In this document: positions 11,724 to 12,454 of the stretch, piece by piece
Position numbering within the stretch: position 1 is the first letter of the stretch
How the letters are laid out: each line of letters starts with the position of its first letter
Program-made: the position numbers and the translations under genes
Virus record (IMG/VR): IMGVR_UViG_2529292906_000015
Span: 1-15,405 of that record
Length of the DNA: 15,405 bases
From: a virus
Taxonomy: Duplodnaviria; Heunggongvirae; Uroviricota; Caudoviricetes
Direction: 5' to 3' (one strand)
Notes under the pieces: generated by a model
Database searches by the model: none
What the model saw: only the letters and a program-made list of their open reading frames with translations
What the model was told of the DNA's origin: nothing

Positions 11724-11961
11724 GGCGCCCCCTTAACTCTCAGTAATGGATTGATAAGACTGGAAAAACATGCATTACCTCCTTTTATACACGTTTGCTA
11801 TTTTTATTGCAATGCCTCACCTGTGGGCACTTAGAAAGGTGAGATTCTGATGAGTCTTTAACTGATTGAATTCGTTCCAATGTGGGAATCCCACATCGGG
11901 AGAACATTACCAATAGGGATAAAAACGATTTGTGGGAAAAGGGGAGTTAAGTAAAATTGCT

Positions 11962-12132
11962 GCGGGTGCTTGAGGCTATCTGCCTCAAGCATGAACACCA
12001 AAGGCAGATAGAGAAAAGCCCCAGTTAACATTATGCGTCCTGCAAGACGCTTAACATTAATCTGAGGCTCAATCTATGAACGGCAAATCTAGGTTAGCCT
12101 CTTACGTGCCGAAAGGCAAGGAGAAGCAGGCT
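11962..12132 (+). promoter_or_regulatory. hok mRNA 5' leader with tac-like stem-loop and an in-frame upstream mok-like start (ATG 12076)
   Basis: GCTTGAGGC-tatct-GCCTCAAGC stem-loop (11967..11989), then GGCAGATAG complementary to CTATCTGCC. Resembles the 5' end of plasmid R1 hok mRNA as I recall it (GCUUGAGGCUUUCUGCCUCA...). Candidate promoter: -10 TAAAAT at 11952..11957. AAGGAG lies 9 nt before the hok ATG. Confidence 0.45.
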
Positions 12133-12288
12133 ATGAAGCAGCAAAAGGCGATGTTAATCGCCCTGATCGTCATCTGTTTAACCGTCATAGTGACGGCACT
12201 GGTAACGAGGAAAGACCTCTGCGAGGTACGAATCCGAACCGGCCAGACGGAGGTCGCTGTCTTCACAGCTTACGAACCTGAGGAGTAA
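12133..12288 (+). CDS. hokD: Hok/Gef-family membrane toxin HokD (RelF), 51 aa
   Basis: Translation MKQQKAMLIALIVICLTVIVTALVTRKDLCEVRIRTGQTEVAVFTAYEPEE matches HokD/RelF as recalled. The track ORF (12076..12288) is the same frame extended 19 codons upstream. Confidence 0.85.
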   Translation: MKQQKAMLIALIVICLTVIVTALVTRKDLCEVRIRTGQTEVAVFTAYEPEE

Positions 12289-12356
12289 GAGACCAGGCGA
12301 GGGAGAAATCCCTCGCCACCTCTGATGAGTCAGGCATCCTCAACGCACCCGCACTT

Positions 12357-12382
12357 AACCCGCTTCGGCGGGTTTTGTTTTT
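12357..12382 (+). terminator. Rho-independent terminator downstream of hokD
   Basis: CCCGC-TTCG-GCGGG hairpin (12359..12372) followed by TTTTGTTTTT (12373..12382). Confidence 0.7.
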
Positions 12383-12454
12383 CCTGGCATTCTGGTTTAC
12401 AATTCGCACGTCAGCCTGAACACCTGACACCTGCTGCGCCAGCAGAGAAAACAG

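Follow-up and report, generated by a model that had tools for sequence, protein, structure and literature searches.

An intact hokD-type hok/mok/sok cassette of a known kind, probably active as a type I toxin-antitoxin locus, in a Qin/Rac-like lambdoid prophage

The closest described relative of the locus reported here is hokW-sokW of the Sp5 prophage (VT2-Sakai), a toxin-antitoxin system of type I which depends in part on RNase III and Hfq and which is active in the prophage where it naturally resides (PMC8621323). Takada et al. (2021) showed that HokW is toxic and that SokW, transcribed from its own promoter, protects the cell; when primers YO-421/422 turn the sokW -10 hexamer from TAACCT into GAGCCG ('pro-less'), SokW protection is impaired and growth is retarded (PMC8621323). 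The production of HokW requires RecA and prophage induction, and after induction of Sp5 by mitomycin C, SokW is removed, HokW is made and phage release is doubled (PMC8621323). The same kind of locus is annotated as mokW/hokW/sokW in the GenBank record of 933W, where mokW and hokW (70 and 51 codons) have a common stop and sokW is a 71-nt antisense RNA. HokW is 44% identical to Hok of plasmid R1 (PMC8621323), for which a closed, untranslatable form of the hok mRNA has been described (PMC9841398). In Escherichia coli K-12, relBE and relF/hokD share one transcript, made from the relBE promoter (PMC3598666), and the five K-12 hok loci are considered to have lost their activity through IS elements, point mutations or rearrangement, apparently intact homologues occurring in other strains, according to the passage of PMC7232551 that cites Pedersen & Gerdes 1999. 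Tens of thousands of Hok homologues, enriched in prophages, have been catalogued in a 2025-26 preprint (10.1101/2025.08.07.668861).

The window analysed here, the whole 15,405-nt stretch of the viral record IMGVR_UViG_2529292906_000015, is a Qin/Rac-like lambdoid prophage. It carries the DicF RNA (Rfam scan), and in E. coli 23CRST014, its nearest genome record (99.9% over a 1-kb query), the annotation lists dicB, ydfA-D, replication genes, DUF968, RusA and Q. A self-contained module (approximately 11946-12383) is flanked by the replication genes and the nin/Q region; conservation among cassettes begins at about 11946 and stops at about 12383. Positions 11964-12379 of the plus strand read, by sequence, as a complete hok/mok/sok cassette of the hokW/sokW (HokD) subfamily borne by lambda-like prophages. 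The upstream replication genes and the downstream DUF968/RusA/Q genes run in the same direction as hok; the genes directly upstream, a Ser/Thr kinase and a PP2C gene, lie on the opposite strand. This kinase neighbour is rare (the 1-kb query is matched over 80% or more of its length in 15 genomes, and among the matches listed 14 annotate the kinase there) and is ordinary lambdoid mosaicism. The integrase is truncated by an IS3-family element and the adjacent PP2C gene is frameshifted twice; because the prophage is decaying in this way, selection on this copy of hok may be relaxed.

The toxin gene (12133-12288, plus strand) is preceded by the Shine-Dalgarno (SD) sequence AAGGAG (12118-12123) and codes for a 51-aa protein which, as the first-pass annotation of this DNA had claimed, is HokD, 100% identical to that of K-12. 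The protein matches Pfam PF01848 (HOK_GEF) with an E value of 3e-23 (81.6 bits against a cut-off of 22) and, over its full length, PHROG 251 'MokW-like host killing' (E 2.8e-33), and bioRxiv 10.1101/2025.08.07.668861 uses an identical peptide as a toxic control. The upstream ATG at 12076, rightly placed in the mok position by the same annotation, lies 57 nt (19 codons) 5' of the hok ATG and opens a frame of 70 codons (12076-12288, plus strand) that is in frame with hok, overlaps all of it and ends at a common stop codon; its translation is MNGKSRLASYVPKGKEKQA-MKQQKAMLIALIVICLTVIVTALVTRKDLCEVRIRTGQTEVAVFTAYEPEE, hok starting at the internal ATG 12133. The mok SD, GAGG, is at 12063-12066 on the plus strand. 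An in-frame mok is normal for the subfamily, since mokC/hokC and mokW/hokW likewise have common stop codons, whereas in R1 the frames of mok and hok differ. When IMG/VR was scanned with the tac motif as pattern, at least 120 viral contigs were obtained, corresponding among the matches listed to 95 distinct cassettes, or 96 with the window included. Over these 96 unique loci, and among the matches listed, the mok SD motif GAGGC is nearly invariant, the mok ATG is kept in at least 90, a 70-codon mok in frame with a 51-aa hok is found in 79, and exactly the same HokD protein is encoded by 45.

The leader (11964-12138, plus strand) matches the Rfam family RF01794 ('sok') over model positions 1-157 of 157, with 112.5 bits, a gathering score of 59 and an E value of 2.2e-25 when the whole window is scanned. 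This match is sense to hok and stops at the hok AUG, and the family in practice models the leader of the hok mRNA, not the antisense RNA. A chance resemblance to hok mRNA is ruled out by this E value (2e-25). The leader also aligns block by block, beyond the coding region, with the leaders of hokC, hokB and R1-type hok, the last being a plasmid locus that we take to encode the R1 Hok protein. Together with the full-length Rfam match and the presence of all canonical hok mRNA elements, this agrees with the earlier description of the leader as apparently complete.

On the basis of the Rfam match, the fold and the conservation in homologues, the full-length hok mRNA is predicted to extend over about 416 nt (11964-12379, plus strand). 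Its putative promoter (11930-11957, plus strand) consists of a -35 TTGTGG (11930-11935), a 16-nt spacer and a -10 TAAAAT (11952-11957), from which transcription would start near 11964. The -10 is situated 6 nt 5' of the conserved mRNA 5' end and aligns exactly with those of R1-type hok (TATGAT), hokC (TATAAT) and hokB (TAGGAT); over the 96 viral loci (among the matches listed) TAGAAT or TAAAAT is kept at this position and the -35 region varies. The transcript begins with tac, the translational activator element (GGGUGCUUGAGG, 11964-11975), recognised by its pairing with fbi and its conservation in the R1-type, hokC and hokB leaders. With the adjoining downstream sequence tac makes a 5' metastable hairpin (11966-11992, GCUUGAGGC / GCCUCAAGC spanning 11968-11990), which forms in the fold of the 3'-truncated RNA, corresponds to the tac-like 5' hairpin of the first reading, and may have the role described for R1 hok (PMC9841398). 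It is followed by ucb, the anti-SD box (AGCCCCAG, 12017-12024), by the Sok-target (sokT) hairpin (12024-12062), which is the Sok terminator hairpin on the other strand and has a 16-nt extension relative to the Rfam consensus, and by dcb, the downstream complementary box (CUCUUAC within UAGCCUCUUAC, 12099-12105), which is invariant in the family alignment. On the 3' side of hok, a stem-loop present in the full-length and truncated folds (12296-12317) is expected, by analogy with R1, to guard the processed mRNA (PMC9841398), and the fold-back inhibitory element fbi (CCUCAACGCACCC, 12338-12350) is complementary to tac with one bulged C. A terminator scan placed an intrinsic terminator at 12357-12383, with a 7-bp stem followed by TTTTGTTTTT; homology with K-12 hokD stops just after it. 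Among the matches listed, ATCCTCAACGCACCCGC of fbi occurs in 76 of the 96 viral loci, and each regulatory element of the window has the majority form of these loci.

The 416-nt transcript folds with a minimum free energy (MFE) of -171.8 kcal/mol (z = -8.5 against shuffled sequences). In this full-length fold, tac and fbi make a 12-bp helix (11964-11975 with 12338-12350, pair probability 0.97-1.00), ucb pairs with the mok SD region (12062-12069) and so hides the mok SD, and positions 12100-12105 of dcb are paired with the hok SD (12120-12124), that is, the closed form is predicted in silico; the fold resembles the fold-back structure of R1 (PMC9841398). Among the fbi/tac/ucb pairings anticipated in the first-pass annotation, tac/fbi and ucb with the mok SD were therefore recovered in the full-length MFE structure. 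The tac/ucb stem was not in the MFE of the truncated RNAs 11964-12336, 11964-12330 and 11964-12320, the 5' metastable hairpin being kept instead. When this stem was enforced, the resulting open form, in which tac pairs with ucb and the Sok-target hairpin is free, lay 0.6-3.3 kcal/mol above the MFE of the truncated RNAs; because the open form costs so little, the tac/ucb switch is plausible in these models, thermodynamics alone neither proving nor excluding it. In the open form, as in the Rfam consensus, dcb pairs with the mok SD.

When the MFE structure of the window was compared with an alignment of 91 sequences, 93.3% of cells were paired, compared with 33-43% when the partners were slid, and changes on both sides were found at 28 pairs, compared with 9.9 +/- 2.3 in shuffles (0 of 500 reached this), counts that lean towards the structure tested, since the aligned sequences are closely related and the window itself supplied the structure. 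An A-U pair of the tac stem is replaced by G-C in 28 sequences of this alignment, and compensatory changes occur in the Sok-target hairpin (12024/12062, 12026/12059 and 12027/12058, in 9-10 homologues) and in the 3' stabiliser hairpin (12300/12313 in 12-14 sequences, 12302/12311 in 6). The tac/fbi helix is paired in 96.7% of cells over the 91 loci, and it is without covariation because tac was fixed by the search pattern.

On the opposite strand, an antisense Sok RNA of about 71 nt is predicted at 12084->12014 (minus strand), its coordinates being transferred from the sokW annotation of 933W through an ungapped alignment. The first-pass annotation had expected a Sok-like RNA on the minus strand at roughly 12020-12110; a gene on this strand is indeed predicted, and only its position has to be corrected. 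The RNA would have a 5' single-stranded tail, a long hairpin and a GGGGCUUUU 3' end, and it overlaps the mok start by 9 nt, like sokC/mokC of K-12 and sokW/mokW of 933W. The 80-nt minus-strand stretch that holds it (12084->12005) folds at -33.3 kcal/mol (z = -5.7) into a hairpin with a free 5' end of 7 nt and a U tract. The same annotation reported no convincing Sok promoter by eye, which reflects the limits of such a reading, since a promoter is recognisable at 12119->12091 (minus strand), with a -35 TTGCCT (12119->12114), a 17-nt spacer and a -10 TAACCT (12096->12091). This promoter is base for base that of sokW in 933W/Sp5 (the window and 933W are identical over 12091-12132), and it sits at the same aligned positions as the TTGCGC-17-TATCCT of R1-type hok. 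Among the matches listed, its -35 is found in 75 and its -10 in 74 of the 96 viral loci. The reverse complement of window positions 12098-12127 is probe YO-597 of PMC8621323, and probe YO-592 and primer YO-351 of the same study match bar a few bases.

Neither promoter of the cassette is close to the sigma-70 consensus; TAACCT, the -10 of Sok, and TTGTGG, the -35 of hok, each agree with it at 3 of 6 positions. A consensus scan of 11700-12500 gave no sigma-70 site, because the scanner accepts a hexamer only if 4 or more of its 6 positions match. This empty scan does not count against the promoters: the -10 of sokW that was probed by mutagenesis (TAACCT, 3 of 6) would be missed as well.

Over 421 nt, the cassette shares 92.7% identity with the mokW/hokW/sokW locus of 933W and relatives; with several other coliphages it shares 95-98%. 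The order of the elements is the same in 933W, and its Sok promoter, dcb and hok SD are identical to those of the window. The differences concern the end of the toxin (...FTAYEPEE in HokD of the window, ...FVDYESEK in HokW, the 51-aa HokW being otherwise the same protein), mok codons 2-5 with the Sok 5' tail (AACGGCAAATC in the window, CTGAACACATG in 933W), the terminator, and the location, since the window cassette stands beside the kinase between the replication genes and DUF968/RusA/Q whereas that of 933W stands close to the right end of its record, surrounded by unrelated ORFs. The hok/mok/sok (parB) locus of plasmid R1 belongs to the same family (RF01794, PF01848) and has tac, metastable hairpin, ucb, sokT, mok SD, dcb and fbi in the same order, with promoters at the same aligned positions; in the window the Sok-target hairpin is longer (16-nt insertion), the tac stem loop is shorter, and the context is a prophage instead of a conjugative plasmid. 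The K-12 hokC/mokC/sokC (gef) locus resembles the window in its in-frame mok with the stop of hok, its 9-nt Sok overlap and its alignable leader, but has a short Sok-target hairpin and occupies a fixed chromosomal site beside nhaA, with IS186 just 3' of hok.

In K-12, hokD, also called relF, belongs to the relBEF operon of Qin, a cryptic prophage. Qin and the window are the same dicB/dicF/ydfABC prophage type, and in the Qin order relB-relE-hokD-rem-ydfU(DUF968)-ydfT(Q), DUF968 and then Q follow downstream as they do here. The hok CDS and the 51-aa protein are identical, and the hok SD, 3' UTR, fbi and terminator are as in the window; clear homology, when the K-12 relE-hokD region is aligned, extends only from window position 12117 (CAGGAGAAGCAGGCTATG), 16 nt before the hok ATG, to about 12377. 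Missing from K-12, where relB-relE stand instead, are the hok promoter with tac and ucb, the Sok-target hairpin, the SD and ATG of mok, and the gene of Sok with its promoter. The statements of the first-pass annotation that K-12 hokD is co-transcribed with relBE and lacks regulatory elements of its own thus agree with the literature (PMC3598666) and with this replacement of the leader. That relBE is absent from this prophage also held, neither relB nor relE being found in the whole window (tblastn, E of at least 1), and for this subfamily a lack of relBE is the rule. The relBEF operon arrangement of K-12 does not apply to the window, which has no relBE and carries the leader where K-12 has relE. 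The spacer between the relE stop and hokD in K-12 retains a weak mok-proximal similarity (score 10.5 against 4.8 +/- 2.0, reached by 24 of 2000 shuffles, p ~0.012), which is only suggestive of a remnant of the leader.

The sequence identity, the position of each element and the predicted pairings with their conservation, all established here, allow a mechanism to be proposed by homology with R1 hok/sok and Sp5 hokW/sokW. A weak constitutive promoter would give a stable mRNA of about 416 nt, in which the 5' tac and the 3' fbi are joined in a helix, ucb hides the mok SD and dcb hides the hok SD, so that the full-length RNA would be neither translated nor bound by Sok. Slow trimming of the 3' end would take off fbi, after which tac would pair with ucb and expose the mok SD and the Sok-target hairpin. 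The unstable Sok RNA (~71 nt) would then pair across the mok initiation region, block the translation of mok and the coupled translation of hok, and lead to cleavage of the duplex. Once the supply of Sok ends, through loss of the element, a block of transcription or prophage induction, HokD would be made and the inner membrane depolarised. Transcription and instability of Sok, stability and 3' processing of the hok mRNA, and killing on loss of Sok have been demonstrated for the 933W/Sp5 homologue (PMC8621323) and for R1 (PMC9841398). For the present copy we infer transcription from both promoters, 3' processing and killing, and the cassette may serve for prophage addiction, assist lysis when the prophage is induced, or exclude other phages.

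On these grounds the locus is very likely a functional type I toxin-antitoxin, and the suggestion of the first-pass annotation that it could be an active one is supported by the canonical elements and by the 92.7% identity to the 933W cassette, a type I system by experiment (PMC8621323). A quite different reading is that the cassette is intact but physiologically silent, a non-killing relic carried passively in a decaying prophage, which we regard as unlikely. The truncated integrase and the two frameshifts in the adjacent PP2C gene would suit such a relic, yet all the regulatory elements of the cassette itself have the majority form of the 96 viral loci (among the matches listed), and its helices show compensatory changes. 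The weak consensus match of both promoters could be taken in the same sense, but the Sok promoter is identical to the functional promoter of sokW. Chromosomal hokA, hokB and hokC gave no PSK or rifampicin activation, as stated in the passage of 10.1101/2025.08.07.668861 that cites Pedersen & Gerdes 1999; against this precedent stand the identity of HokD to a peptide shown to be toxic (same preprint) and the activity of the nearest relative, hokW-sokW, in its native prophage (PMC8621323).

Another view, that the leader is vestigial and hokD is expressed mainly by read-through, as the last gene of a longer transcript coming from neighbouring genes or from the early-right operon of the prophage, is very improbable here. 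The transcription of K-12 hokD from the relBE promoter (PMC3598666) offers a model for it, but co-transcription of the relBE type is ruled out by the absence of relBE and by the kinase and PP2C genes directly upstream on the opposite strand. The conserved -10 six nt 5' of the conserved mRNA 5' end is also at odds with this view, as is the tac/fbi pairing: tac has to be 5'-terminal to pair with fbi, and the retention of this pairing in 96.7% of cells over 91 loci argues for a dedicated transcript start. Since hok is co-oriented with the upstream replication genes and with downstream DUF968/RusA/Q, antiterminated pR transcription would cross it at induction, and production of HokW from Sp5 does require RecA and prophage induction; such read-through at induction is compatible with a toxin-antitoxin cassette having its own start and does not replace it.

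The cassette is therefore best described, from its sequence relationships, as a real and probably active type I toxin-antitoxin locus of an already known kind. The first-pass annotation had implied that the intact form was novel, which did not hold: of 5426 complete E. coli genomes, 4265 (79%) contain the 183-nt leader with a coverage of at least 80%, and mokW/hokW/sokW was already annotated in the 933W GenBank record, so that the locus is not unusual. The leader occurs at a median of 2 and a maximum of 8 places per genome, mostly chromosomal, and the feature column under the match reads 'none'. The relE-hokD junction of K-12, by comparison, is present in 1167 of the 5426 genomes; the intact cassette is the common state in E. 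coli and relBE-hokD of K-12 is a rearranged minority form. This corrects the perspective given by the textbook example, since K-12 hokD (relF), without leader or Sok, is the exception in a species in which most genomes have an intact hokD-type cassette, often in several prophage copies. It also concerns annotation: genome pipelines mark the 51-aa CDS alone and pass over mok, Sok and the regulatory mRNA. Nothing here implies biology that goes beyond that of hokW-sokW.

Only one stretch of the cassette is sharply variable, 12070-12090, with a mean entropy of 1.0 bit compared with a median of 0.175. It exists in 23 variants among 92 intact loci (among the matches listed) and spans the spacer between the mok SD and ATG, mok codons 2-5, the Sok 5' single-stranded tail and 6 nt upstream of the Sok start. 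In R1, the Sok 5' tail makes the first contact with its target, and for this reason the variation could be the result of diversifying selection that makes co-resident prophage copies of hok/sok orthogonal, each Sok guarding its own prophage, an explanation which we hold to be possible but rather doubtful. Co-resident copies were represented, among the matches listed, by 3 pairs of viral contigs with a common genome identifier. The variable Sok 5' tail and mok codons 2-5, which could insulate such copies from one another, are the only mildly interesting residue of the comparison.

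The cassette match to the Rfam family RF01794 ("sok antitoxin (CssrC)") covers positions 11964-12138 on the plus strand, which is the strand that encodes hok, and stops at the toxin's AUG. A match to this family is a signal of the hok leader and not of the orientation of an antisense RNA. Within the toxin coding sequence, the codon for Tyr47 (TAC, 12271-12273, in the context CTTACGAA) is kept in the window.

When the 92 intact homologues were compared, the variability of the entire cassette was found to peak at positions 12070-12090, where the mean entropy is 1.0 bit and thus well above the median of 0.175, and 23 variants of the segment 12079-12090 were counted in the same set. 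The variable stretch spans codons 2-5 of mok, the single-stranded 5' tail of the predicted antisense RNA Sok and the 6 nt upstream of the Sok start, and it may be a determinant of Sok/hok specificity among co-resident copies. Other departures were observed among the copies carried by viral contigs. In the alignment of these contigs, a sub-lineage including L017, L021 and L037, among others, has a short Sok-target hairpin from which approximately 21 nt are missing. In three loci (L022, L042 and L058), unrelated DNA interrupts the cassette after approximately 170 nt, exactly at the hok start codon, so that the toxin is disrupted in copies that still have their leader and Sok. The cassette is also present, at 96.6% identity, in PP818812.1, a record named Actinobacillus phage vB_Apl-pPE4, which was unexpected given the Pasteurellaceae host and suggests either that the host is mis-assigned or that the sequence is derived from E. 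coli.

Divergent from hok lies an intact Ser/Thr kinase gene (10929-11723, minus strand, 264 aa) with matches to Pfam Pkinase and PHROG 2361. Over the kinase domain it also matches three defence kinases in PADLOC, mad6, PD-T4-6 and Stk2 (E-values from 1e-37 to 3e-25), and the gene product may be an anti-phage kinase borne by the prophage. The adjacency of this kinase and hokD is rare, a kinase being annotated under the match in at least 14 genome records among the matches listed. Between the two genes, an inverted repeat with perfectly matching 8-bp arms, ATGTGGGA-A-TCCCACAT, is found at 11880-11896 and a third half-site, TGTGGGAA, at 11931-11938, where it overlaps the putative -35 element of hok; together they could constitute an operator for a regulator. 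The intergenic inverted repeat is not conserved in the Stx2 phage 933W.

Downstream of the kinase, a PP2C-family phosphatase gene (10229-10945, minus strand) is broken across three reading frames by two frameshifts, near 10650 and 10880-10910, whereas its counterpart in E. coli 23CRST014 is intact (238 aa). The window copy is probably a pseudogene, or else the product of sequencing errors.

Regarding the element as a whole, a full-length DicF small RNA was detected at 5087-5138 on the minus strand (76.7 bits), and dicB and ydfA-D are annotated around the equivalent position in the closest genome record; the element is thereby recognisable as a Qin-like prophage. The lambda-type integrase gene (928-1671, minus strand) retains its Arm-binding N-terminus and lacks approximately 125 C-terminal codons relative to a 372-aa homologue; the prophage is probably excision-defective. 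The integrase gene is adjoined, within positions 1-1671, by an IS3-family transposase with rve domains, with an ALIL frameshift pseudoknot at 1-72.
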